This document shows, piece after piece, positions 792 through 46,300 of a stretch of 64,000 bases of DNA. A program made the translations under genes and the position numbers. The stretch is taken from the IMG/VR virus record IMGVR_UViG_3300020576_005098, positions 23,264 to 87,263 of that record. One strand, written 5' to 3'. Position 1 is the stretch's first letter, and the number at the start of each line of letters is the position of its first letter. Below the pieces are notes generated by a model, which did not search any database, had not been told where the DNA came from, and was given only the letters and a program-made list of their open reading frames with translations. The stretch is from a virus. Lineage: Duplodnaviria > Caudoviricetes.

Positions 792-2876
792 CTATTCGCC
801 TGAATTCGTAGGATCTGGTTCACCAGCCAACCCGAGCAACTCGTTCATCATATCCTCTTCTTCTGTTCCAACTCCTTGGATCCCTTTCTGGTTATCCTCC
901 ACACCCTCAGACATAATCACTTCATTCCCAGGGTTTTTCACTCTCAGCGCCTCAGCCAACCCCCTCAAAGAAGATTGCAACTCTTTTGGAAGACGCTTTC
1001 CAATTCTCCTTGCCTTCTTCTCTTCTTCCTCCAACATAAACTTCCTGGTTCCAGCGATGTCATAGGGATCCTTGGAATATCTGTTGCCCGTAATGTCCAA
1101 CATGCTCTTGAAATCTGGAAGAGAGAGAGCACGGTTGCCGGTGAATTCTTTACTACCCCCTCTATCCCGCTTAAACGCCTTATCCAGGCTGGGTGTTGGG
1201 TTGAACTTAATCGGGGTGCTTCCACCCTTTTGAACGCCCTGGTTAATCCCCTGGGTGCCTTTACGGGCCTCCTCTCTTGCCTTGGCAATGGCAGCCTGAT
1301 GCTTCCGTTCCATTTCTTGGTTTTCAATTTCCAGACTTCTGACTTCTTTTTGATCAGGAGCAAATGGAGAAGATGGAACCTCGTAGTTTGCTTTGTCAAA
1401 GATATCGACACTACTCTCCATGCTTTTATCAAACACCGGGTTCTCCAAAATCATCTTCAACTCAGCAATTCTAAGTTGATCCTGCTTGGCTTCTTGCCAA
1501 ATGGTGTTCATTTCCTCTGGTCGGAGACCAAGAATCTCTCTCTGAATCCAAGGGAAAGAAAGAATACCCGTCTCTTTGCCTATCTCCAAAGCTTTGGAGG
1601 CTGTTTCGATTTTACTGGAAATCAGTGCGAGTTTTTGTTGGACTGCGACGGTGGAGGGGTTGGAGAATTTCAGTTCAAAGTTGAGAAGATCATCTCCACT
1701 GAATCCAAGTGAGTAAAGATGAATCATTGCGAGTTTTTCGAGTTCAGCAACAATGATTTTTTGAAGGTGGGCAATCGTTCTTGAAAACCGAATGTCTTCT
1801 TGGGCGAGTGTTGCTTTACTTGAGATTGCTTCGTCGTATGTCAAATAAGCTCTTGGAACCATCAAAGCAGCAATGAGTTTCTTGTGAATGAACTCAATGT
1901 CTTCGATGGCTGTTGCGTTTGTAGCACCAGCCAACGATTCAATTTTTGTTAGGCTGTTTGGTCTTGCTGGAAGGTAGTAATCTTCATCAATAGCAAGAGG
2001 GTTGTAGCGAAAATCTTGTCTGCCTTGTTGTTGTTCAATGACAGAAGTGCCCTTCATTGATTCTTTAACGGCTTCCATGTAGGAAGGAATATCATTCGGC
2101 TGAATTGCAGTGACATCAACATAAAAGACCCTCCGCTCTGGTGAACGAACAAGTCGGTAAACCAACATAGAATCTTCCATCATAATGAGTTGACGGAATG
2201 GCCTTCTGGCACTCTCCAGAAAACTTGTTCCATATGGCAAGAACAAATCATTCCCCAGAATCCTGAAGTGAAGCATTTGCCAGTTTTCCAAATACTTTCC
2301 ACCTCTTGAAACAAGTCTAAATCTCACCGCATAAGGATCGTTGCGATCAAACCCTTCTTCTCTTTCCACTTCATTAACAGGAAGAGGTTCACAGTTGATC
2401 ACTCCATAGTTCGGAACAACCTCAACATACATGAAGTAATCTCCATTCTTGACGAGGTTCCGGATCATCCTTCTGCCGTTGAACTCAATGTTCATTACAT
2501 CATAGAAGAGTTCTTCCAGAGCCTTTTGAACTTGTTGGTTGTCACTATAAATGTGGAAAGTGTTTCCGTTTTCGTCCGAGGCACAACTTTCATCAGCATA
2601 GATGTTTAGTGCGGTTGCAATGTCTGGAAAGTTCTCCATTTCGGCAAACTCGGCGTATCGACTCATGCGATCAAGAACGCCGTAGGCACCAAGAACAGAG
2701 AATGGCGAAGCTTCTTTCTTGAAGCCAGAGGCGCCATAATAACCAAGGTTGTTTTGGACGACTTGGTTGTCGTAATAGTTTTTGTAGTCTTGTCCCTTAA
2801 CCTTCCGTCTAATTGCTGGGCCTGATCGAAAGAGTCTTGTTAGACGTTGATAGAAGGTTTTTTCTTGCTTTGCCAT
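792..2876 (-). CDS. portal (vertex) protein, T4 gp20-like
   Basis: 694 aa; gp20 motifs HFR, RLVRSPERRVFYVDV, EDYYLP, AALMVP, LAQEDIRF. Confidence 0.92.
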   Translation of the reverse strand: MAKQEKTFYQRLTRLFRSGPAIRRKVKGQDYKNYYDNQVVQNNLGYYGASGFKKEASPFSVLGAYGVLDRMSRYAEFAEMENFPDIATALNIYADESCASDENGNTFHIYSDNQQVQKALEELFYDVMNIEFNGRRMIRNLVKNGDYFMYVEVVPNYGVINCEPLPVNEVEREEGFDRNDPYAVRFRLVSRGGKYLENWQMLHFRILGNDLFLPYGTSFLESARRPFRQLIMMEDSMLVYRLVRSPERRVFYVDVTAIQPNDIPSYMEAVKESMKGTSVIEQQQGRQDFRYNPLAIDEDYYLPARPNSLTKIESLAGATNATAIEDIEFIHKKLIAALMVPRAYLTYDEAISSKATLAQEDIRFSRTIAHLQKIIVAELEKLAMIHLYSLGFSGDDLLNFELKFSNPSTVAVQQKLALISSKIETASKALEIGKETGILSFPWIQREILGLRPEEMNTIWQEAKQDQLRIAELKMILENPVFDKSMESSVDIFDKANYEVPSSPFAPDQKEVRSLEIENQEMERKHQAAIAKAREEARKGTQGINQGVQKGGSTPIKFNPTPSLDKAFKRDRGGSKEFTGNRALSLPDFKSMLDITGNRYSKDPYDIAGTRKFMLEEEEKKARRIGKRLPKELQSSLRGLAEALRVKNPGNEVIMSEGVEDNQKGIQGVGTEEEDMMNELLGLAGEPDPTNSGE

Positions 2877-14079: not shown

Positions 14080-15009
14080 ATGACCCTTGGTCTTTGTTGT
14101 CACTTTCTCGAACAGCACGGTTCTTCCTACCAAAATTCCATCAACGAAAAGTCCATGCAGCTTGGTAGGTTCCGTGCTGGCGCCTACTCCCAATCCTATA
14201 TTCATAGTCTCTACATCAACAACCTCCAGGAAATCATTCGGCTGCTCCCCAAGCTCGTTTCTAACAACATCAAGTGTTTTAGAATCTCCAGCAGCACCTT
14301 TCCTCTGTTCGAGTTCAACAAACAGTTGATCGAAGACAGCAAGGATATTAGAGACCTTCTAAATCGAGCAGGAAGGGGTTATCTGGGCGCTGGAATTAGG
14401 GTGACTACCCATCCTGGTCAATTCACCGTTCTAAGCTCAGATAAGCCTTCTACGGTCACGGCAGCTATCACCGAGTTGGATTTTCACGGTTGGGTATTTG
14501 ATGCTATGGGTTTTCCTCAGACTCCTGAGTATGCCATCAATGTCCACGGTGGGAAATCTGATCGTCACCAACAACTCGTTGCCGGAATTTCCAGTCTGTC
14601 TGTTGGTGCAAGGAAGCGTTTGACTCTGGAAAACGATGAGAGTTCTTATAGTGTCCGACAACTGCTTGCTGTTTCTGAAGAAACTGGTGTGCCTGTTTGT
14701 TTTGACAGTCATCACCACACCTTCAATGAAGATGGCTTGAGCCTGGAGGATGCTTATGGTCTTTCTGTTTTGACTTGGAAACGTCGCGGCTGTAAACCAC
14801 TCCAGCACATTAGCAATTCCACACCCAACCTGCCGGATGATAGTTCGTTCCAAGACAAAAGGAAACACAGTGATTTTATCCACCATGTTCCAGAATGCCA
14901 GTTGATTGGGCTATTGAAGGATGAAGTTGATGTGGAAGTAGAAGCCAAGATGAAAAACTTGGCTCTGCTGAAGATGCGAGAGATGTTTCTAAAACATCCC
15001 GATGTTTAG
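14080..15009 (+). CDS. uvsE: UV damage endonuclease UvsE
   Basis: FRISS, HPGQF, NVHGG, LENDE, DSHHH, HISN, HSDF, VEAKMK; start at ATG 14080. Confidence 0.9.
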   Translation: MTLGLCCHFLEQHGSSYQNSINEKSMQLGRFRAGAYSQSYIHSLYINNLQEIIRLLPKLVSNNIKCFRISSSTFPLFEFNKQLIEDSKDIRDLLNRAGRGYLGAGIRVTTHPGQFTVLSSDKPSTVTAAITELDFHGWVFDAMGFPQTPEYAINVHGGKSDRHQQLVAGISSLSVGARKRLTLENDESSYSVRQLLAVSEETGVPVCFDSHHHTFNEDGLSLEDAYGLSVLTWKRRGCKPLQHISNSTPNLPDDSSFQDKRKHSDFIHHVPECQLIGLLKDEVDVEVEAKMKNLALLKMREMFLKHPDV

Positions 15010-16203
15010 TTGTTGAGACAAGATTCCACCTCTCGTATTCCTAACTTCAACAAGGAATTTGGAAGTGGTTGTTGTGATGTGAACGCTGAGTTGTTTGGAA
15101 GATTGTTTGTCGTTGGTGTAGTATGGATACAAAATCCTCACCGAAACAACATCACCAACCAACTCAAGTGTTTTGTCTGGAGATGATAAATCCACAACCT
15201 TGAGATCGTTTCCAGAGAGTTGTTTGACGTAATAAAATCCAAATCCAACTTGGGCGGCTAGGAAACTAGCAACAGCAAAAGAATCAAACTGAGGGCTTGG
15301 ATCCATCCTTTCCATCCCAGATGAAACCTTGTTCACATAGTCTGTAAGACCTTGTGCAACTTTTTCTTTGGAAACCCCCAGAGCAGAAATAAACTCATCT
15401 GTCATTGGAAAAAGCCTTGAAGGTTTCTCCTCTACTGTTCTTGTGGATGGGTTCCAGACGAAGGCGTCCGAATAGCCTGTGTTGGCAAAAGTGTTGCCCC
15501 TCAAACCTTTAACACTGAGATAAACCACATCCCCATCTCTCAACCAAATTCCAAAATCAGCAACCGCAGATCCAATGTTGGAAATGGTTTTTCTGAAAGG
15601 GTTGATTCCCTTGGGCATGGCCGGGGAGATTTTTTCAACACGTTCAATCTCATCTTGAGAGATTCCCAACTTTTCAATCAAGGAATCCCAGAGCTTTCCT
15701 GTTCTGGAAATGGTGGAAGTTGAGAGGTCATTCTCAAAATCGTGTCCTCTGTTTCCACCAGCACCAAACACAACTGGAATGATTTCTTTCTTGTTCGGGG
15801 AATGAATCAGGTAGGTGTTGTATTTTCCACTGGAAGATTTCGGGGCGCCTGGAGGGATAACCTCAGTGTCAAATCCTTCCAACGCTTGCTTCATAAGCCC
15901 TGAGATGCTCTCTTTGTTGTCTGGGGAGGTGAGAAGAAGACGATAGGCGCCTTTCCTTTTCTGTGGAGCAAGTCGAAAACTTCCATTGGTTTTGGAAATG
16001 ATTGATTGAAGAACAGAAGAACTGGAAGACGTGGATAGAACTTCCACATTCGAGTCTGTTCCTGTTTCTAAAGGTGTTGTTCCGTTGAGAGTAAGCATGA
16101 TTTTTTCCGCATCCGTCTCGATACTACGCTCCTCCATGAACAGTATTTTAAGCAGTTTCACTGAGGAATCAGTATTCATTGGTTTCCACCTCAAACATAT
16201 CAC
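14989..16203 (-). CDS. hypothetical protein, possible PD-(D/E)xK nuclease fold
   Basis: 404 aa; GHDFE...ADFGI...YLSVK spacing; N-terminal LLKILFMEE; start may be ATG 16179. Confidence 0.6.
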   Translation of the reverse strand: MICLRWKPMNTDSSVKLLKILFMEERSIETDAEKIMLTLNGTTPLETGTDSNVEVLSTSSSSSVLQSIISKTNGSFRLAPQKRKGAYRLLLTSPDNKESISGLMKQALEGFDTEVIPPGAPKSSSGKYNTYLIHSPNKKEIIPVVFGAGGNRGHDFENDLSTSTISRTGKLWDSLIEKLGISQDEIERVEKISPAMPKGINPFRKTISNIGSAVADFGIWLRDGDVVYLSVKGLRGNTFANTGYSDAFVWNPSTRTVEEKPSRLFPMTDEFISALGVSKEKVAQGLTDYVNKVSSGMERMDPSPQFDSFAVASFLAAQVGFGFYYVKQLSGNDLKVVDLSSPDKTLELVGDVVSVRILYPYYTNDKQSSKQLSVHITTTTSKFLVEVRNTRGGILSQQLNIGMF

Positions 16204-25706: not shown

Positions 25707-26282
25707 ATGAAACTAAGCCAAATTCTATTCACCAACGAAAATTCTGGTGATTTTTCAGGGGCTGGGACTTTTCAGGGTGGACCATACGGCTTCGGAAACA
25801 AACACCAACTCGCTGCACCAGAACCCTGGGAAGGTCTCGAAGACAAAGAAAAACCAGAAGAAACCTTCCTCAAAGAACGAAGTCCGTCCGATATTCTCTA
25901 TCGAGATCTTCCAGGATTTCCAAGGATGAATACTCTTGCAAAACCAGTGGATCATATCCCGCACACACCCTCAGACGAAGAAAGATACAATGTTCCCGAT
26001 CTCATTCCTCCCGGAAGAGATGGAGAAGCAGGTGAACATTTTGGTTATGGTCCTCTCGAAGAAGACCCAGCCATTCTCGCCCACCACACCAACTGGATTG
26101 AAAAAGAAACCGAATCACAACACGCAGGATATTCCTCCAGTGAAATTACAACAAACTCAGTTCCAACTCATGGCGGAAGTGCTGGTGTTATCTCAAAACC
26201 TGTGAAACACGTTCCCGGACCCGTAGACATCTACAAAAAAGGTTCCGGTTCCGGCTACTCTCTCGGTGAATGCCTCTTCTAA
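25707..26282 (+). CDS. hypothetical protein with ILF-E N-terminal tag
   Basis: MKLSQILFTNE; ATACCTA upstream. Confidence 0.65.
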   Translation: MKLSQILFTNENSGDFSGAGTFQGGPYGFGNKHQLAAPEPWEGLEDKEKPEETFLKERSPSDILYRDLPGFPRMNTLAKPVDHIPHTPSDEERYNVPDLIPPGRDGEAGEHFGYGPLEEDPAILAHHTNWIEKETESQHAGYSSSEITTNSVPTHGGSAGVISKPVKHVPGPVDIYKKGSGSGYSLGECLF

Positions 26283-30575: not shown

Positions 30576-31211
30576 ATGGTCAACAGTCTTTTCGAGTTCT
30601 TGTTTTTTGAGGCAGCCGTTCCATTTTCCGAGATTGGAAAAAGTGAAATGGCGTTGAAGGTTTTGAAACAAGGGCCGGAGCAGCTTGTTTTTATTTTGTA
30701 TCGACCTTCGGTCCTCACGAGATATTTCCAGGATTGGGAATCAACAGATGGCCTGACTGCTGGAATGATGAACATTGTTGTTTCAGATGAAAACCCAAAG
30801 ATTTTTGAGGTGAAAAACGCAGCGGCAGAAAAGGGTTTTGGTCCTGCGATGTATGACATTGTGATGAGTTACATTTCACCCAAGTTTCTCATGTCTGACA
30901 GGAAAGATGTGTCCGATTCTGCACAAAAAGTTTGGAGGTTCATGTTTGATCACAGATTGGCAGAGTACGACACTCTTTCACTTCCAACTGTTTGGAATGG
31001 TACTCGACTGAAAACCGACAATGAAGATTTGGAGTTTTTGAACTTGGCTTATCGTTTGAAAAAGAAGTTGGCTATCCATACAACGCTGGTGATGAGAGAC
31101 CGTCAGTTTTTTGGGAATGAGTTTGATAGGAATAAACGAGAAGAGATGTTGACCGTTCTGGAAGAAGATGCTTGGAATTATTTTCGGGATCGGATGAATG
31201 TTGTTGAGTAG
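30576..31211 (+). CDS. GNAT-like protein (homolog of 37.7-42.6 kb family)
   Basis: KGFGPAMY...LMSDR..VSDSAQKVW; N-term LFEFLFFE. Confidence 0.7.
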   Translation: MVNSLFEFLFFEAAVPFSEIGKSEMALKVLKQGPEQLVFILYRPSVLTRYFQDWESTDGLTAGMMNIVVSDENPKIFEVKNAAAEKGFGPAMYDIVMSYISPKFLMSDRKDVSDSAQKVWRFMFDHRLAEYDTLSLPTVWNGTRLKTDNEDLEFLNLAYRLKKKLAIHTTLVMRDRQFFGNEFDRNKREEMLTVLEEDAWNYFRDRMNVVE

Positions 31212-32067: not shown

Positions 32068-32994
32068 ATGAAATCCATCTCTTTGGAACGTTTGTTGTTT
32101 GAGCGTGTTGATCTTGAAAAAATCAATGCGATCCGACAAATGTTCCAAGAAATCAAAACAAACGTCCTCACCATCCCAGCAACCCCAGCGGCTTTCAAAA
32201 GAAATGGCTGGGAAGCAGAGGAAGGATTGTTGAAAACCCTTGTTGTTTCGGAAGTTTATGCGGAATCTGTTTTTGATAATCTCTTCATAAGCTTCGAACC
32301 TAAGATGTCTCAGTTGGCATGGGCAAACACAAATGAAGATGGAGACCTTCTCCTCGCATTTCGTATTTCACCAACTCCATCAAACATCAAAACAAAAAGC
32401 CAATTCAACTCCTGGTTTGTGAATGAAATAAAGACGTGGTTCCAGCAACCAAGTTCTGAATCTCTTTTCGTTCATGAATTTATTCATCTTCTGGACATTG
32501 CCAGAATTGGTGATGTGTTTTTCGACATTGTTGAGAAAACAACAGCCTTGGATAAACCTCTTGCCGACCTTAAAAAGGAAGCTGAGAAGTTGAAAGCGGT
32601 GTTGGACGGAACCATAAAGGGAACACCAGAGAGAAAGCAAGCCCTTGCAAACTTCAGAAGGGTGGCTGCAAAATGGAAGGAAACAAAGGAAAGGCGTTGG
32701 AAGGATTATCAAGGCTCGCCTGTTGAGACCAACGCCTTCTTTAACCAAACCATTGCTGCTGTCAAAGAAAAAGCTTCTAGGGCCCTTAGAGAGCGTGGTA
32801 AATTGGCTGCCTTGGGTGTGTTGGGAAACAGCCCGCAAGAATTCGTTTCAGTGTTCGAAAAAGAACTCGCAAAAAATATTCGACTTGATTTACTGGATTC
32901 GAAAACTCTGAAAAATTTTCAAAAGAGGGCATCGGTTTTGTATGATCAGTTGGTAGATGAGATTGAGACGGGGAAAGAGCGCAGCCTTGTATAA
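32068..32994 (+). CDS. HExxH (zincin-like) domain protein
   Basis: LFVHEFIHLLD...ETNAF; N-term LERLLFE; ATACCTA upstream. Confidence 0.7.
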   Translation: MKSISLERLLFERVDLEKINAIRQMFQEIKTNVLTIPATPAAFKRNGWEAEEGLLKTLVVSEVYAESVFDNLFISFEPKMSQLAWANTNEDGDLLLAFRISPTPSNIKTKSQFNSWFVNEIKTWFQQPSSESLFVHEFIHLLDIARIGDVFFDIVEKTTALDKPLADLKKEAEKLKAVLDGTIKGTPERKQALANFRRVAAKWKETKERRWKDYQGSPVETNAFFNQTIAAVKEKASRALRERGKLAALGVLGNSPQEFVSVFEKELAKNIRLDLLDSKTLKNFQKRASVLYDQLVDEIETGKERSLV

Positions 32995-33733: not shown

Positions 33734-33745
33734 TCGGTTTTGGTT

Positions 33746-33820
33746 ATCACACAAGCTCTGATGGTGGAGTAGCTTACCCTTATCGTAAGCACGGACAAGG
33801 TTCGAATCCTTGGTGTGATA
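33746..33820 (+). ncRNA. tRNA-like RNA with 6-bp anticodon stem and CCTTATC loop
   Basis: ATCACAC/GTGTGAT, CAAGG-TTCGAAT-CCTTG, GCTTAC/GTAAGC. Confidence 0.65.
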
Positions 33821-33831
33821 TGTTTGTTTGT

Positions 33832-34512: not shown

Positions 34513-34582
34513 TTCTCTCAACAGTAGACTGTAACGAGAAGCTCATTCCACAGCCTTGACATTTTCCTACCTATTCACTGCG

Positions 34583-35134
34583 ATGTCCTCCTCAAGCAGT
34601 GAATCCATCCTCAAAACAATAATCCTTGAAATCTTGGTAGAAGCCAAGAAAGAATACGAACAAAATCCAATGAGGTTGTTTGGTCTGTTGTTTCCAAAAA
34701 CCAGACCAACTCAATCTAAGCATGGGATGGATGTTCGAGGATTAACCTTTTATCACGCATCTCCAAAGAGGTTTAGGCACGGGGATGTTCTTCGTGGGAA
34801 TATGTCTGGTGGCTATGGATCAGAGCATGAAAATGTTTGCATGACAACAACACCCAAACCCCACGGAACCATTCAATCAGCTATTCAAGACGATTGGTTT
34901 GTTTATGAAGTAGAACCTGTTGGTCCTGTTTGGTTTGTTGAAACCAACGACGAATATCAAGCTAAGCAAGCTGTTGTGAAATCCTTGGTTGGTAAAGCGG
35001 GCGCGATGAACAGAAACTACCCCAGCCCATCTTTCAAAAATGCCAAATCTCCTACCGTTGAAAAACAACGTCAAAAGAAACGACAAGAACGCTTGGAAAA
35101 ACGTTTGAATCGAGGAGAAAGCAATGAGTCCTGA
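34583..35134 (+). CDS. ADP-ribosyltransferase-like protein (Arr-like)
   Basis: FYHASPKRFRHGDVL...VCMT...VYEVEPVGPV...EYQ resembles Arr/ART core; start ATG 34583. Confidence 0.6.
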   Translation: MSSSSSESILKTIILEILVEAKKEYEQNPMRLFGLLFPKTRPTQSKHGMDVRGLTFYHASPKRFRHGDVLRGNMSGGYGSEHENVCMTTTPKPHGTIQSAIQDDWFVYEVEPVGPVWFVETNDEYQAKQAVVKSLVGKAGAMNRNYPSPSFKNAKSPTVEKQRQKKRQERLEKRLNRGESNES

Positions 35135-35498
35135 TCCTGTCCAAAGCTTTGTTGTAGAGATCGAAAAACAGTTTCCTGGTGTTTCTTTGGATTTGGGATT
35201 GAGCCGTTCTGGGGATGTTTTGATTTTATCGAAGATTGTTGTTGGGAAAGAAAGCAGGGGGAAGGGAATTGGGTCTGAGGTTATGAGGCGTCTGGTGGCT
35301 TTTGCAGACCGTCACGGGTTGAGGATAGGTCTCACTCCGTCTGGGGATTTTGGTGGCTCTGTTGGGCGTCTCAAGAGGTTCTACAGGGGCTTTGGGTTCA
35401 AACCTTACAAGGGATTTGATCACAGAGAGACAATGGAAAGAGAACCCCTAACCTCCCCAATGAGTTTGTCAGAGATTTTGTTTAGACCCGAAATTTGA
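35124..35498 (+). CDS. GNAT family acetyltransferase
   Basis: IVVGKESRGKGIGSEVMRRLVAFAD...RLKRFYRGFGF. Confidence 0.88.
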   Translation: MSPDPVQSFVVEIEKQFPGVSLDLGLSRSGDVLILSKIVVGKESRGKGIGSEVMRRLVAFADRHGLRIGLTPSGDFGGSVGRLKRFYRGFGFKPYKGFDHRETMEREPLTSPMSLSEILFRPEI

Positions 35499-36874: not shown

Positions 36875-37005
36875 AAAAAAACCATTCAGCACAGCAGAAA
36901 CCATTTCGGGATTTTGTTGATATGCTTGTGATTGCCGCCTTGGTTTTCACAATGCTCAAAGCAGCCCAAGTCCTGTTCCAGCTAACACACAACAGTCATC
37001 TATAA
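36871..37005 (+). CDS. small membrane peptide (44 aa)
   Basis: ATGA overlap; MLVIAALVFTMLKAAQVLF. Confidence 0.45.
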   Translation: MKKNHSAQQKPFRDFVDMLVIAALVFTMLKAAQVLFQLTHNSHL

Positions 37006-37739
37006 AACGTGTCAATGATCTCGTTGGACGCACCATAATCCAACAAAACAATCTTCCCCAGCGAAGTTTTTCCCCACTGGCGGATCCCACCAAAATCAAC
37101 AGGATCCAACCCAAAAGCAGAAACAGCTTGTTGTAAACCTCTGAAAACACGTTTGGCTGTTTTGTTTTTTTTGATTGCTGCCTCTACCCTTTTGCGCGAT
37201 TCAATCTTGCTGGTTGAACTTGTTCCATAGTCTTCCTCGGAAGAGGTGCTGGAATAACTTGAAAGAACACTTGAAAGCGACGTTGGATGCAAGCCGCCAG
37301 AAAGCTCAAAGAATTCTTCTACGTTTTTCAAAGGTCTGACGAGATCAGCAATCAACCAAAGGCCATTCGGTTCCAGTTTATACGATTCCGGAATAACTGC
37401 TTTCACCGCTGGGGGGGCGTCTCTCCAAGTGTTGAATTCCTGTTGATTTTGTGCCGCACCGGCTTCCGTGTACTTCTCAACATACTGACTCTTGAAACTC
37501 CCAGCCAGTTTCAGTGCGAATCTCGATGAAAGAACGTAAGCAGTCCTGGAAGAACCTTCTCCCACCTTCTGCAATCCCTTTGACTCAACATAATCTCTAA
37601 GAATTTTTGCTTTCTCAACTGTTGGGAGATTATCTTTCCCATTCAGGAGGGATTCAAATTCTCTTATGTTGAAACCTGTTCCCCTAATGGCTTCACCAAA
37701 CAAGAATTCCGAAAGGATTCCGAGTTTGTTGGTTTTCAT
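36996..37739 (-). CDS. protein kinase-like fold protein
   Basis: VGEGSSRTAY (Gly loop), ALKLA, QNQQE, PVDFG...QWG, LLDYG; start ATG 37739. Confidence 0.72.
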   Translation of the reverse strand: MKTNKLGILSEFLFGEAIRGTGFNIREFESLLNGKDNLPTVEKAKILRDYVESKGLQKVGEGSSRTAYVLSSRFALKLAGSFKSQYVEKYTEAGAAQNQQEFNTWRDAPPAVKAVIPESYKLEPNGLWLIADLVRPLKNVEEFFELSGGLHPTSLSSVLSSYSSTSSEEDYGTSSTSKIESRKRVEAAIKKNKTAKRVFRGLQQAVSAFGLDPVDFGGIRQWGKTSLGKIVLLDYGASNEIIDTFYR

Positions 37740-37740
37740 G

Positions 37741-38526
37741 TTAGTATTTCCTCCCGAAAAGTGCTTCACCCGCTTTGGCTATTGCAATCTGTTGTTCTTG
37801 TTTGCTGATATCTCCGTCCACTTCCATTTCTTCCAACAGGATACTTCCTTGACGCCTGAGAGAAGCAAGGTTGATGCTTGTTCCGATATATCTCCAAGCG
37901 TCAGCGGTTCCCAGCTTTGAATTGTCTCTCAAAGGAAGAGGGCAATCGTCAGAAGTGTCGGAAGGGGTTAGTGGTGTTGGACTTTCTTTTCTTCTGCGTC
38001 TTGGATAGCGGCCACTGAATCTGTACCACTTGGTATCAGCAGCCCTGGAATTCAATGGATCCTTTTCGCTGGAGAAGTTGTCGAGTGGTGCTTTTTCCCA
38101 TTCTGGACTCTGTTCGATCCCAGCCCATGTTTTTTGTGCCGCTGGAGACGTGGAAACAAATCTGTCACTTGTCAAGAAGCTGTTTCCATAAAGGCTGAGA
38201 AGTGCGTAACAAGCAGACCCGGCGCCGGGATAATTCGGATTTGCAACGATCCAGTTGACCACATGAGCATCAGAGCACATTGGTTCTTTTAGTTTCATGA
38301 TCTGTCCTGCTCCACACAACCAGGAGAAGTCGTTTTCATTTTCCAAAGCTCTGGGTGTGTATTTCTCAGAGTTGATAAGAAAAACAGTCGTGACCTGCCC
38401 TGATCTTCCAAACACAGCACCATAGGTTGGTGCTTTGAATTGTGAAACTTTGGCCCCAAACTCCATCCCTTCCCCAAACAAAAACATTTCCAGCAGCCAC
38501 CGTTGTTGTTTCACTGATTCATCCAT
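37741..38526 (-). CDS. GNAT-like paralog 1
   Basis: ANPNYPGAG..CY...LTSDR..STSPAAQKTW. Confidence 0.75.
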   Translation of the reverse strand: MDESVKQQRWLLEMFLFGEGMEFGAKVSQFKAPTYGAVFGRSGQVTTVFLINSEKYTPRALENENDFSWLCGAGQIMKLKEPMCSDAHVVNWIVANPNYPGAGSACYALLSLYGNSFLTSDRFVSTSPAAQKTWAGIEQSPEWEKAPLDNFSSEKDPLNSRAADTKWYRFSGRYPRRRRKESPTPLTPSDTSDDCPLPLRDNSKLGTADAWRYIGTSINLASLRRQGSILLEEMEVDGDISKQEQQIAIAKAGEALFGRKY

Positions 38527-39331
38527 ACCTTTCCGAGAAAAGGCGAATTGCAGCCTTTCTCAACAAAACTTCCAAGCGAGGTTTTCCATCAACCACATCA
38601 TCTGGGAATTCAAATGTGATAGGGCTCATAACTTCCGAAGCGAACTCATCCCCAGATTGAATAAGGGACTCAAGTTTTGCTGGGCCTGCATAAACCCAAG
38701 CATCGACAGAACCCAAAACCTTGTTGATTCCATCTTCGGGGTTTTTGTCGCCATAAGTTCTGTTTTGTGGTAATTGACAATCATCTTGTGTGAATCCTGG
38801 GGTTAGTGGGTTTCCACCAAAGTAGATCAACCTTCTACTGGGCCATGTTCCTTGATGGCGATAATAGTCTCCCCAGATGTCGTGATTATCCAACGGAGCC
38901 CTTCTCCACTTGGACGAATCCGTTTCAATCTTAGCCCAAGTCTTTTTTGCAGAATCAGAGGTGCTGACATCTCTATCACTCACAATAGGTCCGCCAATCA
39001 TCTCCCCAAACAATTCGTAACAAACAAGTCCAGCACCCGGAAACTTCTTAGAAGAAGCAACAGAGGCAACTTCAACTGCTCCAAGGCAGTCTCCCTGATG
39101 TGATTTTCCTTTGCGAATCATTCCACATAACCAATCCTCATATTTTCCAACAACCGAGAAGAAGTTCTTTTCTCTTGCGAGTGTTTCTCTCAGGGATTGT
39201 TTGTGGAAGAGGGTGATGGCTTTCCCATTACCTGTAACAGAAATGATTACAACCCCATATTCTGCCGGGGTCGTGTAGTCTCTTTTTGTTTCTGTTGTAT
39301 TCTCACCAAAGAGAATATGAGTGAGTTTCAT
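38519..39331 (-). CDS. GNAT-like paralog 2
   Basis: KFPGAG..CY...IVSDR..STSDSAKKTW. Confidence 0.75.
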   Translation of the reverse strand: MKLTHILFGENTTETKRDYTTPAEYGVVIISVTGNGKAITLFHKQSLRETLAREKNFFSVVGKYEDWLCGMIRKGKSHQGDCLGAVEVASVASSKKFPGAGLVCYELFGEMIGGPIVSDRDVSTSDSAKKTWAKIETDSSKWRRAPLDNHDIWGDYYRHQGTWPSRRLIYFGGNPLTPGFTQDDCQLPQNRTYGDKNPEDGINKVLGSVDAWVYAGPAKLESLIQSGDEFASEVMSPITFEFPDDVVDGKPRLEVLLRKAAIRLFSERYG

Positions 39332-39360
39332 GGTTGATGATGTAAATACCTGATCTCAAC

Positions 39361-40020
39361 TCACTCACCAAACCAAGAATCATAGAAGGTTTCTAGGAAC
39401 TCAACAGTTCCACCAACGTCCAAGAAAACAATGTCGCCTTCACGGTTCTTTCCAAGTTGATGAATGCCAACCATGTCTTTGGGTGAGAGACCAGCACGGA
39501 CGAGCGCCTGAGCCCCAGCAAACCACCCCAGAAGCTTTTCTGGGGCGCCCATTTGTCTCAGACGGGTCGGAGGCAGGGAAGGAAATTCGGGCGCCAGGAT
39601 AATGCCTTCAAACGTCTCCTTGGTCATGCCCTCCATCGCCTGCTCAAAATCATTCCAGTTCCTCAAGGGTCGAACCAACTCAGAGATCATCCAGAAACCC
39701 CTGGCACGATCAAAGGCTTTGATGGTTGGAACAACAAGTTGTGCTTCTGGAGGAGCATTCCCGACCATCTTGAATTCCTCTTTATTTTGGTAAACACCTT
39801 CATCCGTTTCGGCAAGTTTCAGAACCGTTTTTGCTGAAATGATATAAACAACTCTTCCAGAACCCGCACCAACCATTGGCAGCTTGTCTTTGGCATAAGA
39901 CAACATCTCTTGGAGGGTATCAAGCCGGGCAAAGTCTTTGAGAATGAAAGGAGATTTCCGATTTAGAGAACGATTGCTTTCGGGAAGAAATAGAATGGAA
40001 GAAAGATCAGGTGTTGGCAT
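39361..40020 (-). CDS. protein kinase-like fold protein (paralog of 36996-37739)
   Basis: VGAGSGRVVY, VLKLA, QNKEE, ELVRPL, PKDMVG..QLG, FLDVG; start ATG 40020. Confidence 0.72.
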   Translation of the reverse strand: MPTPDLSSILFLPESNRSLNRKSPFILKDFARLDTLQEMLSYAKDKLPMVGAGSGRVVYIISAKTVLKLAETDEGVYQNKEEFKMVGNAPPEAQLVVPTIKAFDRARGFWMISELVRPLRNWNDFEQAMEGMTKETFEGIILAPEFPSLPPTRLRQMGAPEKLLGWFAGAQALVRAGLSPKDMVGIHQLGKNREGDIVFLDVGGTVEFLETFYDSWFGE

Positions 40021-40052
40021 TGGTTGTTTGAAGCGTAAATACTGGAGAAGTA

Positions 40053-40889
40053 TCAGCGTGAGAACCAACCGTTTTCTTGTGCCTGTTCAAACAAAACCCC
40101 AGCGCAAACTTCAAGAAATGAATTCAGTTCCATTCCAGGCATGAGGTTTTTCATTCCGTTTTCAACATAAGCTCCAAGTTTTTTACCATAAGCGATCATT
40201 CCTTTGGCATCTACTGGACCCTTGTACTTGTATGCGTTAGCAGAACCAAGAAGATCTGCTACTTTTGGAACATCCCACTTGCTGATGTTTGTTTTCTTTT
40301 TTGTTGGAATGGGGCAGTCATCAACAGAGCTATCAGGGGTTTTGGCTCCACTTGGTCCAAGATCTTTCACACTTCTTGCTGGAAAGTGACCTTGATAATC
40401 AACAAATGATTTATAGGCGCCGTTTTGATCGGTCACTTTGACATAGTTGTCCAGTTCAGCTCCAATCATTGTCCATTCCGGACTTTGTTCTATCTTCGCC
40501 CAGGCTTTTTTTGCTGCTGGGCTGGAGCTGTGTGCTCGATCACTTGTCAGAGGTGCGTCGAACACTTTGGAAGCTAGAGCATACATGGTTGAGCCCGCTC
40601 CTGGGTACAAAGGATTTCCAGCAACAAAAGCAACTTGCATCGCGCCAAAACATTCATCAGTCTCTGTTTCTCTCAACTGAATCATTCCAGCAGCAATCTT
40701 CTCATAAGGAACTTCTGATTCGTTTCCTTGAGAATACTTCATCAACTCTGCGAAGTTTACAAGAAGAAGTGTGTTTCCTTGAAGTTGAAACAGGGAATAT
40801 GTTGGAGCAGAAAAAACGTTCAGTTGTTTGGGTGCTGAAAGTTCTGACTTCTCAAAAAGGATGGAAGAGAGCGAAGTTTTGAGTTTCAT
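40053..40889 (-). CDS. GNAT-like paralog 3
   Basis: GNPLYPGAG..MY...LTSDR..SSSPAAKKAW; start ATG 40889. Confidence 0.75.
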   Translation of the reverse strand: MKLKTSLSSILFEKSELSAPKQLNVFSAPTYSLFQLQGNTLLLVNFAELMKYSQGNESEVPYEKIAAGMIQLRETETDECFGAMQVAFVAGNPLYPGAGSTMYALASKVFDAPLTSDRAHSSSPAAKKAWAKIEQSPEWTMIGAELDNYVKVTDQNGAYKSFVDYQGHFPARSVKDLGPSGAKTPDSSVDDCPIPTKKKTNISKWDVPKVADLLGSANAYKYKGPVDAKGMIAYGKKLGAYVENGMKNLMPGMELNSFLEVCAGVLFEQAQENGWFSR

Positions 40890-41827
40890 TACCCAGTAAT
40901 TCCTTTGTAGAGGTCTTGAAAAAACGGCCAAGATTGATGAGCGAGGTCATTCATCAATCTTTTTGGGTTGAGGGCATGTTCTTCTGAGGCTGAGGCAATA
41001 ACTTCTTTTCCTTTGGCGAGCAAGGGGGCGGGATCCAAACTGGAACCTGTATACCTCCAAGCATCAGCGGTGCCGAGGACATTATCAATTCCGTACTTGT
41101 CTTCTGCTGGGAGTTTGCAGTCATCTTTTGTATCAGGAGTTGCAGGTCTTGCTCGACCTTTGATTTTTCTGTTCGGCCAAGAATCTCTGATCTCATACCA
41201 TTCAAGGTCTGTATCTTCTTCCCCAAAAGATGAGTAAGTTCCAATGAAGTTATCCAGAGGAATCTTTTCCCACTCAGGATCTTGCTCAATCCTTGCCCAA
41301 GTCTTTTTTGCGGCATTGCTTGTGTGATGTTCTCTGTCACTGGTCAACGCCCCATACTTCTTTGAAAGAAATGCGTAACAAGCATAACCAGCACCGGGAT
41401 AACGGGGATTGCCAGTTGAAAAACCAACAGAGAAAGCTCCTCCACACTTCCCAACTGCTACACCACCAAGTCTCTGACCAGAAGCATATCCAGCCGCATA
41501 TTCATAAGGCTTTGATGGAAGAATTGCTCCGTTGTTTGCAGACAAGACATTGAGAAAATCTTTGGTGTTGATAAGGAACAGCCCTTCGCCCTCTTCATCA
41601 TCCGTTTCAATCAAGAAGAAATTGTCTGCTGTGAATCTTTTTGGATCTGATGCGGTAGGTGGAAGATGTTTGAATGCTCCTCTGGGTGGAAGCATCTTTT
41701 TAGGATCAAACAGTTGTCGCTGCGTTCCTTTGGGAACACTTCCATAACCCGGAACGTAGTCATCATATTCACCGGCTTCTTTGAGATAGATCCATTCAAG
41801 AAGTGTTTTTGGGGTTGTTGATTTCAT
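40889..41827 (-). CDS. GNAT-like paralog 4
   Basis: GNPRYPGAG..CY...LTSDR..HTSNAAKKTW. Confidence 0.75.
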   Translation of the reverse strand: MKSTTPKTLLEWIYLKEAGEYDDYVPGYGSVPKGTQRQLFDPKKMLPPRGAFKHLPPTASDPKRFTADNFFLIETDDEEGEGLFLINTKDFLNVLSANNGAILPSKPYEYAAGYASGQRLGGVAVGKCGGAFSVGFSTGNPRYPGAGYACYAFLSKKYGALTSDREHHTSNAAKKTWARIEQDPEWEKIPLDNFIGTYSSFGEEDTDLEWYEIRDSWPNRKIKGRARPATPDTKDDCKLPAEDKYGIDNVLGTADAWRYTGSSLDPAPLLAKGKEVIASASEEHALNPKRLMNDLAHQSWPFFQDLYKGITG

Positions 41828-41842
41828 GTCGTTGGTGATCTT

Positions 41843-42637
41843 TCAGAGGTAAACAGCGTCAAAAAGTTTTCTTGTGTGCTGTGCTATTGTCATCTTCCCC
41901 TCTTGTTCCTTCCCATTGAAAATTCTTCGAAGAGCTTCCTCCCCGTTGTTTTTCAAAGAGACAGCATCAACGGAAGAACCAACATAGAGCCAAGCGTCTG
42001 CTGAGCCGAGGTAATAATCTACCCCTTTCACACCAAATCCTGGAACCTTGCAATCATCGTTCTCTGTTTTGGTTCTTGGTTTGTTTGTCATCTGGACTTT
42101 TCTGTTGGGCCAGTTGCCAGAAACCCTTACCCAAGAGTTCAGGTTGTTTGTTCCACCCGAAGGATGTGATCCTGTAAAGCTATCCAGAGGAACTTTCTTC
42201 CACTCGGGACTTTGTTCGATCCTCGCCCAAGCCTTTTTTGCTGCTTCGCTGGTTGATCTCTTCCTGTCACTTGTTATTGGTTTTTTCAACAGAGAAGATG
42301 TTGCGGCGTAACAGACATAACCAGCGCCTGGAAATTTGGGATTGGCAGCAACGTATTCAATATCAAAAGCACCACTGCAATTTCCATCTTCGGGAAAAAG
42401 ACCAAGCTTCCCCGCTTTGGCGAAGGAGCAGAGATAGTCTTCCCAAACTCCTTGTTCAAACTTCCCAGTGCCAACTGCTTCTTCCAGCTTGCCAACATGA
42501 AACAAAACAAACATGCTTATGCCTTCAAAAGCAAAAAAGGAGCAGCCGTATTCTGGAGCCTTGAATCTTCCAGGATCTTTTGCTTGGTCGATGACTTGTT
42601 CGAGGAAAAGCCATCTGGATAGGTTGAATTTGGTCAT
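41843..42637 (-). CDS. GNAT-like paralog 5
   Basis: ANPKFPGAG..CY...ITSDR..STSEAAKKAW. Confidence 0.75.
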   Translation of the reverse strand: MTKFNLSRWLFLEQVIDQAKDPGRFKAPEYGCSFFAFEGISMFVLFHVGKLEEAVGTGKFEQGVWEDYLCSFAKAGKLGLFPEDGNCSGAFDIEYVAANPKFPGAGYVCYAATSSLLKKPITSDRKRSTSEAAKKAWARIEQSPEWKKVPLDSFTGSHPSGGTNNLNSWVRVSGNWPNRKVQMTNKPRTKTENDDCKVPGFGVKGVDYYLGSADAWLYVGSSVDAVSLKNNGEEALRRIFNGKEQEGKMTIAQHTRKLFDAVYL

Positions 42638-42675: not shown

Positions 42676-43341
42676 ATGAAACTTGATAAGACATGGAAGA
42701 AGGTGGTTGCGTTCGCTTTAGGGTTTATTGCACTGGTTGCCAGCAGCTTTTTCATTGGCCATGCCATTCACCAAGCAACGCGACCAGATAATCACAATGA
42801 AGACTTCTATGGAGTAATCAGGGTGCGATTGGCTGGAGAAGGTTGGACGGCAGAAAGAAGAGAGGCAGCAACAAAAGCAATGGAAGAACTTGAAAGGCTT
42901 GGTCCTTCCTTCCTCTTTGTTGCAGACAATGCACCAGCCGAAATTAGAGGCATCCCCGTTTGGATTGATTCACAAATTCCAGAAGGTGAAGTTGGAGGGC
43001 ATTGCCCAGCAGGAGTTTACCAAACCTTTCCACATGACAACAACAGCGTAAGAATCACACTGTTCCCGTCTTGTATTCACTCAAATCTTGAATTCCAAGG
43101 AGCATTCATGCACGAGCTTGGTCATGCAATTGGGATGGATCACGTTTGTAGAACTGTTGGGGAGGATGGTGTTTGTAGCTCTGTTGGTTATGGTGTTTCA
43201 TTTATGAACCCCAACCTTGTTTACGACGAAGCTCTGCCAACAACCACTCAATTCTCCATTCCAATGTTGGAAGTCACCGAGTTGGATGTTAGAGAATATA
43301 GAATGGCTCGCGGCAGAGCTTCAATTCGCCCTGTTGAATGA
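42676..43341 (+). CDS. membrane-anchored metzincin (matrixin-like) zinc metalloprotease
   Basis: N-terminal TM helix; HELGHAIGMDH; downstream Met-turn (SFMNP). Confidence 0.8.
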   Translation: MKLDKTWKKVVAFALGFIALVASSFFIGHAIHQATRPDNHNEDFYGVIRVRLAGEGWTAERREAATKAMEELERLGPSFLFVADNAPAEIRGIPVWIDSQIPEGEVGGHCPAGVYQTFPHDNNSVRITLFPSCIHSNLEFQGAFMHELGHAIGMDHVCRTVGEDGVCSSVGYGVSFMNPNLVYDEALPTTTQFSIPMLEVTELDVREYRMARGRASIRPVE

Positions 43342-43343
43342 TC

Positions 43344-46300
43344 TCAGTCAGTCAGAACAAAAATCTTGTTCTGAAAACAAGAAAATCCAAACTCACTTTT
43401 ATCGAGAAGAGCAACGACAATATCGTTCGGTTTCAATCCAACCTCACCCTTCCAACCCCAAATAAAACAAGTGTGTTCCTTGTTCATCTCAGCAAACAGC
43501 TTCAGTTTCAAATAAAGCTTGCCGGTTTTGGTTGTTGCCAGTTCCGCAGATGAAACAACAGCCCAATAATTTCCCTTCTCTTCCCAATCGTCAATACTGG
43601 AAAAGCCAAGCTCATCCAGTTTGGCTTTAACGTTGGCAGAAACAATCAAGTCAAAATCAACACTTCCGGCAAGCTCCTTTGAAAACTCAAGCTTTTCGGC
43701 CAGAGTCCAATCAGGAACATCCTTGGTTGCTTCAATAGCGTCAAGCAAGGCTTTACCAACGTCGTTGTTTTTCTTCCGCGCCGAAGTTCTTTTCAGCATG
43801 TCGTACTGACCAATCAAAACATCATGAACTTGGCGATAGTTCTGGAAGAGTTTCCCCGGCCCAACACAATCCAATGAACCAAGAGCTTCGAGTTTTATGA
43901 GAGCACTCAGGGCACTCTTGTTAAACTTGCTGTGTCGCCAAGTTCCATCAGGGTTAACAAGAAGTTCCAGTGGATTGTTGTAAGGTCTAAACCGCAGAAT
44001 CTCTTGCGTTGCAGCTTTTCCAACATGAGCAATCCCACTAAATCCCGGAACCAGTGTTTTTGAAAGAGAAGGATGAGGGTTGATATCAAACCCAGAGTTG
44101 TTGATGTCTGGTTTTGCCAGTTTGTATCCAAGTCCTTTGGCTTCTTTCAATGCAATGGCCTTGGGATCTTCTTTTCCAGTTACCTTTCCTTTGCTAGTAG
44201 AACAGTAGTCGATATAAGTCGCAACCCACTCATCGGGGTAATATGTCAAGAACCAAGCGCACTGCCACGAAGTAATTGCATAACAAACTGCATGGGATTT
44301 GTTGAAGGAGTACGAAACGAGCTTTTCCATTTCATCAAAAACCTCGCCGGTAATCTCCTTGGAAATTCCATTCGTTGTGAAACACAACTCAGTAAACTTG
44401 TCACGAAGAGCATCACGATCAGCTTGTGCTTTTGCCTTGTTGCTAATGTCTTTCTTGGTAAACGCCTTTCTAATTCCGTCTGTTTCTTCCAGGGGAACAC
44501 CTGCGAGTTTGTGGTAAATCATCTGAAGCTGTTCTTGGAAGACCAAGAGTCCAGAAGTTTCAGCAAACACTTCTTTCAACAATGGATGTTTGTAACCAAC
44601 ACTCTTTGGGTCTGTCCTGTTCTTCAAGAACTTCTGATCAACCTTTGCTCCAAGAGGACCAGGACGGAAAATCGAGGTTGCAACCGCAATGTCAAGAATG
44701 CTTCGCGGCTTCATCTTCCGCATAAACTCTTGAGTGTTCGGTTGAACAAACTGGAATACTCCTGTGTACCTAGAATCCCAGAACACATTCTTGTAAACCT
44801 TCTCATCCGTCATTGGATTGTTGTCCGGATGAAGATTGTTGTCAAACCACGCTTTAATCTGAGCAAACGAAGGGTTTGGGTTTCCTTGTTTGATCAAGAT
44901 ACGACGAATACAGTTTTCAAACATGCGAAGAGTTCCAAGACCAAGGATGTCGAATTTCAGCAGCCCGAATTCTTCCAAGTGACGATAGTTTAATCCTTCT
45001 GGCCAAGGTGTCTGCAAATCACCGCCAGACTTGATCAAAGGCATTCCCTCACGAGAGTTTTCTGTGATGATCACACCTCCAGCATGACGGCTCAATCCTC
45101 TCATCTGCTTGAACAAAACCTTGATCGTTGTCTGGAATTCAGGAAACTCTTCCATCAAATTCCTAAACGTCTCTGAATTCTTCAGTGCTTCTTCGTAAGT
45201 CAGCACCCAAACCTGTCTATCAAACCCAGGTTCTTGCTTCGCAACAGCCAACGCTTCCGCTTCGATCTTCCCCGTTGCTGCATTGATCTTTTCAAATGGA
45301 AGACCATAAAGCCTTGCAACGTCCTTGATCAAACTCCTCAATTGGAGTTGAGCGAAGTTGGAAACAGGAATAACGTTCTCTTCTCCAAAGAACTGAATGA
45401 GAAGCTGGACTGCTCTGTCTCTATCCGAAAAGTCTGAGTCAATATCAGGAAAGGAGTTTTTCTTAAACTTTGTGAGGAACCGCTCGAATACCAATCCAAA
45501 CCTGATTGGATCGGTTTGTGTGAGGTTGAGAGTGTAAGACAATAGAGATCCAGCAGCCGAACCTCTTCCGTTTCCAATCAACATCTCATCGCCAACAACC
45601 TTCATGATCTTGTGATAAGTCAAGAAGTATTTCGAGAACTTCAGTTCCTTGATTGTTTCAAGTTCATGACGAAGCCTGGAAATATATTCCTGCTCCTTGG
45701 ACTTTCCAACACGGCGCAATCCTTCAATGGCAAGCCGCACCAATTCCTTGAAAGCAAGGTCATCCTCAGACATGCCCTCAGATCGCTCCAGGAGCTTTTC
45801 TAGCGGCTCCCGATCCACGATCCTGGCCAGGGATGGCAACTTGATTTTGCTGTCAATAGAAACGCTCCCAATTTGATTGTGGGCGATGTCATGAGTCAAC
45901 TCAATCGCATCACAAATCGTTTGATCATCATAAACCCCAGGATACAGCTTTTTGAGATCCAAGTAAGTGTCCCAAAGTTGCTCCGCGTTCTTTGGATAAA
46001 GTTGACACTTCAACTGAGAAACATCTTCTGGAAGAGTGCTCGGATTAACACTTCCCTTTGTCTTGGAAGCCCAAGCCATCGCCTTGTAAATCTCACGTTC
46101 ACGCCAGTGCTCTGGGCGAGAGTAGTGCGAGTCAACAGTAACAACCATCTTCAAGCCAGTACGCTTCGCCAACTCCATCAAGTGATAATTCACAAGATGT
46201 TGCGCGCCAAGTTTGTTGAACTGAAGCTCCAGATAAAAATTCTCTGGACCACCAAGAACCTCAACAAACTTATCAGAAACCTCTTTCAACTCTTTCTGAA

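Follow-up and report, generated by a model that had tools for sequence, protein, structure and literature searches.

Why does a large phage carry seven closely packed genes for two enzyme-like families in a single array, and where would their products act? The question is raised by a 64,000-nucleotide stretch of caudoviricete DNA (the window; bases 23264–87263 of the 87-kb IMG/VR virus record IMGVR_UViG_3300020576_005098), to which all position numbers below refer unless stated otherwise. Its span 36996–42637 is filled by seven minus-strand open reading frames (ORFs), five of them GNAT-like (G1–G5) and two kinase-like (K1 and K2), that are arranged in an operon-like manner with overlaps of 1–8 nt and gaps of 1–32 nt (Table 1). 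A preliminary description of the span had proposed an accordion of acyl- and phosphotransferases. On balance we favor a different answer, drawn by analogy with bacteriophage T4: the seven proteins would be packaged into the phage head, trimmed by a protease and injected as host-modifying enzymes.

Folds and active sites of the two families

The five GNAT-like proteins match each other in BLASTP searches with E values of 1e-26 to 4e-48 at 32–49% identity over the aligned parts (1e-27 to 4e-40 for G1 against the other copies), which excludes chance similarity. G2–G5 align with G1 over the full length at 33–37% identity, and 36 columns of this alignment are invariant. All motifs listed in the preliminary description fall inside these columns, namely NP-x-(Y/F)-PGAG, TSDR, AAKK-x-WA-x-IE, PLDN, DDC-x-(L/I/V)P and LG-x-ADAW-x-Y-x-G. 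The divergence of the N-terminal halves, also pointed out there, is real: in pairwise comparison, the ~80 residues up to the conserved Cys are on average 23% identical and the remainder 38%.

The window copies have no Pfam match at E ≤ 1 and no PHROG match, a profile of the five copies had no meaningful match among PDB sequences, and a tblastn search of 50,697 phage records with G5 retrieved nothing. In a search of 1.84 billion proteins, the same profile matched 134 representative clusters (E ≤ 1e-3). Seven of the 77 aligned family members match Pfam GNAT models, and four distant ones (P0084, P0088, P0101 and P0103), which are retrieved by the five-copy profile at E values of about 1e-10 to 1e-6, reach the gathering score of PF00583; the profile link of the window copies to GNATs therefore runs through the family profile, not through a direct match. 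The PF00583 match lies on a stretch whose Q-G-K-G-L-G loop aligns with P-G-A-G of the window copies, in support of the earlier reading of PGAG as the acetyl-CoA (pyrophosphate) loop.

The AlphaFold2 model of G5 (predicted local distance difference test score, pLDDT, 94; predicted template modeling score, pTM, 0.89) gave weak Foldseek matches, nearly all of them to GNAT, MYST or HAT1 folds, in agreement with the fold that had been suggested. Comparison with 48,161 chains by VIA, which is independent of Foldseek, returned GNAT-superfamily proteins at all of the top 50 places (Z 5.0–6.4, root-mean-square deviation about 3–5 Å, 83–136 residues aligned), with matches covering model residues 24–223. 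Among the viral models of BFVD, the matches were phage NAT_SF/GNAT proteins.

The top conserved sites in the 77 sequences are the G-x-G loop of motif A, which reads (K/N/L/R)-(F/Y)-P-G-A-G in the window, the D-R pair closing β5, the S-x-S...A-K stretch opening α4 and a Trp. In G5 numbering, G104, G106, D124, R125 and W137 are 91–99% conserved (G104, 91%; G106, 99%). Further conserved sites are an invariant D-D-C loop in an insert after α4 (D194, D195 and C196) and a second Cys before β4 (C87); for this insert and the Cys pair we could identify no counterpart. From the family profile and the model we conclude that G1–G5 belong to a divergent, uncatalogued branch of the GNAT superfamily in which the cofactor site is kept, and their acyltransferase activity is predicted.

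A sixth, distant copy had been placed at 30576. The ORF located there has orthologs in L008 and L009 (70–83% identity) and does share the cofactor-loop core with the array copies (36 columns, hhalign probability 70%, E 4e-5). Nothing beyond this core is shared, so that the earlier claim is borne out in part, and the five-copy profile scores the ORF at 15 bits. Two further genes touch on acetylation. A small canonical GNAT of 124 amino acids at 35124–35498 (plus strand; Acetyltransf_7, E 4e-7; Acetyltransf_1, E 6e-6) lies 1.5 kb from the array and is unrelated in sequence to the five paralogs. Outside the window, a protein of the histone deacetylase family is encoded on the minus strand (G000:C1:1999-2868, also L012:1999-2868; Pfam Hist_deacetyl, E 1e-28). 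One genome thus carries a deacetylase and at least six GNAT-like genes.

K1 and K2 are 31% identical (E 7e-25). Neither matches Pfam, their only PHROG match is to phrog_4301 (function unknown; E 7e-6 for K2), and a profile of the kinase-like family gave one chance-level match among PDB sequences (E 1.1). A Pfam scan of the kinase-like relatives gave AceK_kinase alone, as a weak match (E 0.002) in 2 of 11. The AlphaFold2 model of K1 (pLDDT 82) has a kinase at every top Foldseek place, MEK1, PRPK/Bud32, Pho85, PknB and WbdD (probability 0.99–1.0, E from 2e-3). VIA placed SAICAR synthetase on top, and nearly all its top matches are protein-kinase-like (Z 5.3–7.7 with APH(2''), Rio1/2, Bud32 and pseudokinases). 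Four residues do not vary in 42 family sequences: K77 (the β3 Lys), E101 (the αC Glu), D215 (catalytic loop) and D234 (in D-Y-G). The Gly-rich loop, G-x-G-S-S-R, is almost invariant. The chain ends ~13 residues after D-Y-G, so that the entire C-lobe is missing. The structural matches and the K/E/D/D set uphold the kinase fold claimed earlier for the two interleaved ORFs. A protein-kinase-like fold with the phosphotransfer residues kept is thus supported by model and alignment, and phosphotransfer itself is predicted.

Kinases without a C-lobe are found among polyvalent proteins, which occur in phages and conjugative elements and whose families include Kinase-PolyVal (PF18762) and ART-PolyVal (PF18760) (Iyer et al. 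2017, PMC5512222). K1, K2 and nine relatives were scanned with PF18762 and gave no match at E ≤ 1, and they are therefore not filed as Kinase-PolyVal members; their sole tie to this family is a language-model lead (0.94). A metagenomic relative of K1/K2, P0170 (463 amino acids), does carry ART-PolyVal behind its kinase-like domain (residues 271–407, E 5e-9). Another relative, P0172, carries DUF5661.

A leader on unrelated proteins and T4-type head genes

The N-termini of homologs are strongly conserved as M-K-L-(Y/S/F)-x-(I/L)-L-F-E. The window form is looser and can be described as hydrophobic-LF-x-E, with the cores F-L-F-G-E, I-L-F-G-E, I-L-F-L-P-E, I-L-F-E, W-I-Y-L-K-E and W-L-F-L-E. The core is identical in orthologs and the preceding residues vary; the leader of G4 is exactly conserved in its ortholog. 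The listed starts of K1, K2 and G3 (for G3, a TTG at 40931) are probably too far upstream, and we favor ATGs 37739, 40020 and 40889, with which each protein begins directly with the conserved leader; K1 then has 247 residues, as in the form present in databases. In both AlphaFold2 models, the leader helix (residues 6–19 in G5) is the least confident and detached part.

A position-specific scoring matrix (PSSM) of the leader was trained solely on GNAT-like homologs from outside the window. It scored 19.3 on the kinase-like homolog P0005, which starts M-K-L-S-E-I-L-F-E-G, and found weaker versions on K1 and K2; the top score in the window, 18.0, belongs to G3. The leader was also detected on ~17 further ORFs outside both families (in L007, L008, L010, L011 and the window), whose bodies have no BLAST similarity. 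When the first 16 residues are removed, the leader-bearing proteins fall into 22 BLAST-unrelated groups, most of them without a Pfam or PHROG match. In all, the leader is carried by two distinct folds and at least 15 bodies unrelated by BLAST. As many as 17 of the 27 non-family matches to the matrix lie within the first 40 residues, where 14% would be expected (binomial p = 6e-9). A strict degenerate DNA pattern of the leader had 8, 5 and 5 matches in three related records and none in the reversed control. Since codons differ between the matches, the constraint acts on the protein.

Three leader-bearing ORFs of the window that belong to neither family are listed in Table 1. A weak match (PSSM 7.4) is also present at 34556–35134 (plus strand), where an internal ATG at 34670 opens a frame of 154 amino acids starting M-R-L-F-G-L-L-F-P-K; the longer reading has I-L-E-I-L-V-E near its start, and the Pfam scan gave no match. 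In IMGVR_UViG_3300027754_000067, the product of L010:7992-8612 (minus strand) starts M-K-L-S-N-I-L-F-E and matches phrog_2579, 'ParB C-terminal domain' (E 5e-33). Polyvalent proteins, and DdrB of phage P1, typically carry ParB-like domains too (PMC5512222). Judged by the portal protein, the cultured phage nearest to this one is Microcystis phage Mel-JY01; the strict leader pattern is absent from it, and it is therefore no obvious experimental stand-in.

A short N-terminal leader ending in Glu is what directs proteins into the head of T4. Its protease gp21 cleaves after L/I-x-E, the first 10 residues of internal protein IPIII are enough for packaging, and the internal proteins of T-even phages are diverse except for a capsid-targeting sequence (CTS) that is conserved (PMC9026906, PMC3012670); trimming, at I-T-E-6, is also known for Alt, an enzyme that is packaged and modifies the host (PMC5694885). 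Both IPII and IPIII start MKTYQEFIAE, as read from the T4 record AF158101. Exchange of the Glu at the T4 cleavage site for Asp blocks the cut.

Head genes of the same type are present here. In addition to the gp20-type portal gene of the window, a gp21-type S77 prohead protease (G000:C1:22518-23138, minus strand; Peptidase_S77, E 2e-27 and 7e-26), a gp23-type major capsid protein (Gp23, E 3e-30) and an Ala/Glu/Pro-rich scaffold-like protein are encoded just upstream of it. The N-terminal 70 residues of the capsid protein contain four L-x-E motifs, and the scaffold-like protein contains L-F-Q-E, L-I-E and L-F-E. The S77 protease is also found in three of five related records, all of which are fragmentary. 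The best portal match is 39% identical, and the phage is only distantly T4-like. Tagged genes lie on both flanks of a cluster of 33 tRNA genes and a tmRNA gene (26.9–34 kb); in T4 (AF158101, 65.4–73.9 kb; L017), the tRNA cluster likewise separates ipI from ipII and ipIII.

Since one tag is found on many unrelated proteins, packaging is the most economical explanation. We infer that the leader would dock each protein onto the scaffolding core of the prohead, that the gp21-type protease would then remove it after the Glu, and that the mature enzyme would be retained in the DNA-filled head and pass into the host together with the DNA. There, acetylation (or acylation) and phosphorylation of host or defense targets could take place before any phage gene is expressed. 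T4 Alt modifies the host at a comparably early stage by ADP-ribosylation. With the cofactor half of the fold kept, the divergent N-terminal half, which would bind the acceptor, may set the target of each paralog; a host- or defense-directed role is plausible, and the leader would offer a concrete means of delivery for it. A broader proposal, which we put forward tentatively and hold to be possible but doubtful, is that uncultured giant phages with T4-type heads use the nine-residue leader to load at least a dozen separate enzymes as 'unbundled' polyvalent proteins. The set would comprise GNAT acyltransferases (several), kinases without a C-lobe and other proteins, zincin-like and ParB-like ones included, with each GNAT or kinase paralog modifying a different host or defense target within seconds of DNA entry.

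Several observations weigh against packaged and injected enzymes. Leaders of relatives end in L-F-E. Among the eight leaders of the window, L-F-E, L-K-E and L-P-E stand beside three cases of F-G-E and one each of F-L-E and F-F-E; five have Phe in place of the Leu/Ile of the T4 motif three before Glu, and an altered specificity of the protease has to be assumed. In many phages, the kinase-like family has a conserved E-x-I-R signature that spans the proposed cut site, so that the N-terminal helix of this family may be retained on maturation. None of the Pfam models for GNATs or kinases matches the window copies, and the structural Z-scores are below 8, a range where VIA warns of a merely common arrangement. 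The catalytic-loop Asn (D-x-x-x-x-N) is absent from the kinase-like proteins, with Gln or His six residues after D215, and K1 and K2 are therefore filed as atypical kinase-fold proteins rather than canonical protein kinases. Finally, a scan of 36.5–43.5 kb for σ70 promoters and terminators gave results at or below the shuffle background, and no late promoter was identified.

The best-surviving alternative is that the seven genes encode ordinary cytoplasmic enzymes of host takeover or metabolism, made after infection and never packaged, with the helix serving oligomerization, regulation, chaperonin docking, degradation or timing. The folds and catalytic residues make sense without packaging, as the T7 kinase acts unpackaged; the kinase-like family retains the helix with E-x-I-R in many phages, and the genome encodes a GroEL-type chaperonin. 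We nevertheless regard this alternative as rather unlikely, since it leaves unexplained why a 9-residue N-terminal leader with a prohead-protease-type end is found on unrelated folds, and why it co-occurs with T4-type head-maturation genes and with tRNA-flanking clusters like those of the T4 ip genes; in both models, the leader is also detached and least confident.

As to the wider setting, the completeness of the record as estimated by CheckV is 34%, which makes it a fragment of an uncultured phage with a genome of roughly 250 kb. The window also encodes a DnaE-type polymerase (43344–46979), the GroEL-type chaperonin, a fused Mre11/Rad50 and a T4-type terminase. Divergent from the array and 38 bp away from it, an ORF (42676–43341, plus strand) encodes a protein of 221 amino acids whose N-terminal segment is hydrophobic and which contains the zincin motif H-E-L-G-H...D-H; its matches to Pfam metallopeptidases are weak (Reprolysin_5, E 3e-4). 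The tRNA array includes a suppressor-type tRNA with anticodon TTA, which reads UAA (33745–33821, plus strand; ARAGORN); all seven array genes are open under the standard bacterial code. Metagenomes from freshwater, rivers, wastewater and bioreactor sludge, produced by several studies, contain near-identical DNA. Within K1, G1, K2, G3, G4 and G5, some stretches are matched at 90–100% identity by short contigs (150–340 nt) of four RNA-seq libraries, which belong to three studies of wastewater or sludge; DNA carry-over is possible, and these contigs are not evidence of transcription.

Table 1. Array genes, leader-bearing ORFs and portal gene of the window
Feature	Position	Strand	Remarks
K1, kinase-fold paralog 1	36996..37739	-	247 amino acids from ATG 37739; matches phrog_4301 (function unknown); dN/dS 0.05
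K1 leader	37692-37739	-	residues 1-16; ends F-L-F-G-E
G1, GNAT-fold paralog 1	37741..38526	-	261 amino acids; leader ends F-L-F-G-E at residue 19; dN/dS 0.04
G2, GNAT-fold paralog 2	38519..39331	-	270 amino acids; starts M-K-L-T-H-I-L-F-G-E; dN/dS 0.10
K2, kinase-fold paralog 2	39361..40020	-	219 amino acids from ATG 40020; leader ends I-L-F-L-P-E at residue 14; dN/dS 0.05
G3, GNAT-fold paralog 3	40053..40889	-	278 amino acids from ATG 40889; starts M-K-L-K-T-S-L-S-S-I-L-F-E; dN/dS 0.04
G4, GNAT-fold paralog 4	40889..41827	-	312 amino acids; leader T-L-L-E-W-I-Y-L-K-E (residues 8-17), then linker of ~30 amino acids; dN/dS 0.08
G5, GNAT-fold paralog 5 (modeled copy)	41843..42637	-	264 amino acids; leader ends W-L-F-L-E at residue 13; motif A K-F-P-G-A-G at residues 101-106
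Distant sixth relative	30576..31211	+	211 amino acids; GxG...DR...S..A.K.W cofactor core only; leader L-F-E-F-L-F-F-E
Unrelated ORF with same leader	25707..26282	+	starts M-K-L-S-Q-I-L-F-T-N-E; PSSM 10.7 at residue 2; no Pfam/PHROG match
Unrelated ORF with leader and HExxH motif	32068..32994	+	starts M-K-S-I-S-L-E-R-L-L-F-E (from translation); no Pfam/PHROG match
Unrelated 396-amino-acid ORF	14989..16179	-	leader K-L-L-K-I-L-F-M-E-E near start; PSSM 13.1; phrog_8438 (function unknown)
T4-type portal protein (gp20)	792..2876	-	Pfam Portal_T4, E 8e-65

Age and selection of the array

In a relative represented by three metagenome contigs, all seven genes recur in unchanged order with 85–94% protein identity (91% for the G1 ortholog, P0013; 94% for the K2 orthologs in L014–L016). 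The ratio of nonsynonymous to synonymous substitution rates (dN/dS, Nei–Gojobori) between these orthologs is 0.04–0.10 for each of the array genes, with little difference between the N- and the C-terminal half. Orthologs and not paralogs were used since synonymous sites are saturated at the 33–37% identity of the paralogs; ortholog dS is itself high (0.65–1.5), which makes the ratios rough while their direction is clear. Each array gene is under strong purifying selection, and as each paralog is conserved individually, each probably has its own target.

In the family tree, G3 belongs to a well-supported clade with copies from L007, L008 and L011 (SH-aLRT 95), G2 is placed elsewhere, and only G1, G4 and G5 cluster, on long branches (SH-aLRT 93). 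The five paralogs are thus non-monophyletic and represent at least three old subfamilies common to other phages. The number of copies in other relatives is 1–3 for the GNAT-like and 0–3 for the kinase-like family; genes of both families lie next to each other in the window and at two of five related loci. The array thus consists of old paralogs, every one of them conserved individually, and is no recent amplification.

Selection also bears on the possibility that the proteins are packaged but non-catalytic, acting as enzyme-derived structural or DNA-organizing internal proteins or as decoys that bind host defense proteins. There is a T4 precedent, since IPI* binds GmrSD. T4 internal proteins in general act mostly by binding (PMC3012670). 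In the alignment, the GNAT loop of the window copies is two residues short of the Q-x-x-G-x-G loop that Pfam-positive relatives have, and the kinase-like proteins lack, as described above, one catalytic residue and a whole lobe. Yet the near-invariant residues are those to be expected in working enzymes (G-x-G, D-R, S-x-S and the D-D-C loop in the GNAT-like family; K/E/D/D in the kinase-like family), and strong purifying selection extends along the full length of each gene. We consider non-catalytic roles improbable.

The accordion put forward in the preliminary description, i.e., recent tandem amplification with fast diversification of specificity in an arms race with host defense proteins, has little left to recommend it. 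The genes do stand in tandem, their N-terminal halves diverge more than the rest, copy number varies among distant relatives, and three of the copies cluster in the tree. But the copies are merely 33–37% identical, G2 and G3 belong to other old subfamilies found in other phages, and gene content and order are the same, one to one, in a relative at 85–94% identity. The low dN/dS of all genes and of both halves speaks against ongoing diversification. We therefore regard both parts of this claim as unsupported and improbable.

The last alternative concerns the substrates, which could be small molecules or RNA (aminoacyl-tRNA, antibiotics or defense signaling nucleotides) rather than proteins. The toxins TacT and AtaT acetylate aminoacyl-tRNA, and AAC(6')-APH(2'') is a bifunctional pairing of a GNAT with a kinase-like enzyme. 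Although TacT3, AtaT, aminoglycoside acetyltransferases and APH(2'') tie in Z with protein acetyltransferases and kinases, and the array adjoins 33 tRNA genes, we rate this alternative lowest of all, since Z-scores of 5–7 cannot resolve subfamilies, neither the Pfam scan nor profile searches of PDB sequences gave a sequence-level link to those families, and the packaged-protein genes of T4 likewise flank a tRNA cluster without a functional link. Delivery by packaging would be compatible with protein as well as with small-molecule or RNA targets.

Comparison with known systems

If the packaging hypothesis is correct, the capsid-targeting principle of T4 reaches well beyond T-even phages, and the leader provides a simple sequence rule for picking injected effectors in poorly annotated metagenomic genomes of giant phages. 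Two uncharacterized enzyme families, one GNAT-like (~134 clusters at 50% identity) and one of minimal kinases, would be defined as candidate host-modifying enzymes that act before any phage transcription, and the leader could be used as a packaging tag for protein delivery in such phages. Even if packaging is wrong, the arms-race accordion is replaced by a tested picture of old, individually conserved paralogs.

At the level of the fold, G1–G5 share with the GNAT superfamily (Pfam clan Acetyltrans, e.g., PF00583) the β4-α3-β5-α4 cofactor core with its G-x-G loop. They differ from it in the shortened loop, the long insert after α4 with the invariant D-D-C, the second, near-invariant Cys and two extra C-terminal helices. 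A functional precedent for K1 and K2 is gp0.7 of phage T7, a phage kinase that phosphorylates host proteins (PMC5512222); gp0.7, however, is not packaged and has no detectable sequence similarity to K1/K2.

Packaged paralogs are known from phiKZ, 201phi2-1 and SPN3US, where ejection or inner-body families also comprise several diverged members. In these phages, the paralogs are packaged in the head, a gp21-related protease removes their N-terminal propeptide by cutting at a three-residue motif, after its Glu, and they can share the propeptide while their bodies diverge (PMC5694885). Trimming after Glu is what we propose here as well. In contrast to the S77 enzyme considered above, the proteases of these phages belong to family S80 and cut at S/A-x-E, the paralogs have no recognized enzyme fold, and there is no sequence relationship.

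A second parallel is offered by the polyvalent proteins of phages, in which ART, C-lobe-less kinase, GNAT and zincin domains are joined and for which delivery by the capsid is predicted (PMC5512222). The toolkit of protein-modifying domains is the same, a relative of K1/K2 is fused to ART-PolyVal, and DNA-linked delivery is predicted in both cases. As in Kinase-PolyVal (PMC5512222), the whole C-terminal subdomain has been lost from K1/K2 and the active-site residues are kept. Unlike polyvalent proteins, which are single giant polypeptides, the proteins described here are small, separate and each equipped with its own leader. Furthermore, polyvalent GNATs are RimI-like, whereas the G1–G5 family is far from any catalogued GNAT, and the Pfam Kinase-PolyVal model misses K1/K2 and their relatives.

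A close likeness is also seen to IPI–III and Alt of T4. In both phages, a short N-terminal leader is common to unrelated proteins and consists of M-K-x-Y, a hydrophobic pair and x-Glu (MKTYQEFIAE in T4; MKLYxILFE in this lineage); the head genes include those for an S77 protease of the gp21 type, for the portal (gp20) and for the capsid protein (gp23); tagged genes flank a tRNA cluster; and the cargo is diverse, with the tag alone conserved (for T4, PMC3012670). The bodies of the proteins, on the other hand, are unrelated to those of T4, and the cargo here consists of multi-copy enzyme families. The leader is one residue shorter than the CTS in relatives and degenerate in the window, where Phe often stands three before Glu. 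The phage replicates with a DnaE-type polymerase, unlike T4, and packaging of the proteins is a proposal. The capsid-targeted set would thus be a variation on the theme of T4 internal proteins and Alt and of polyvalent proteins, composed from two undescribed enzyme families.

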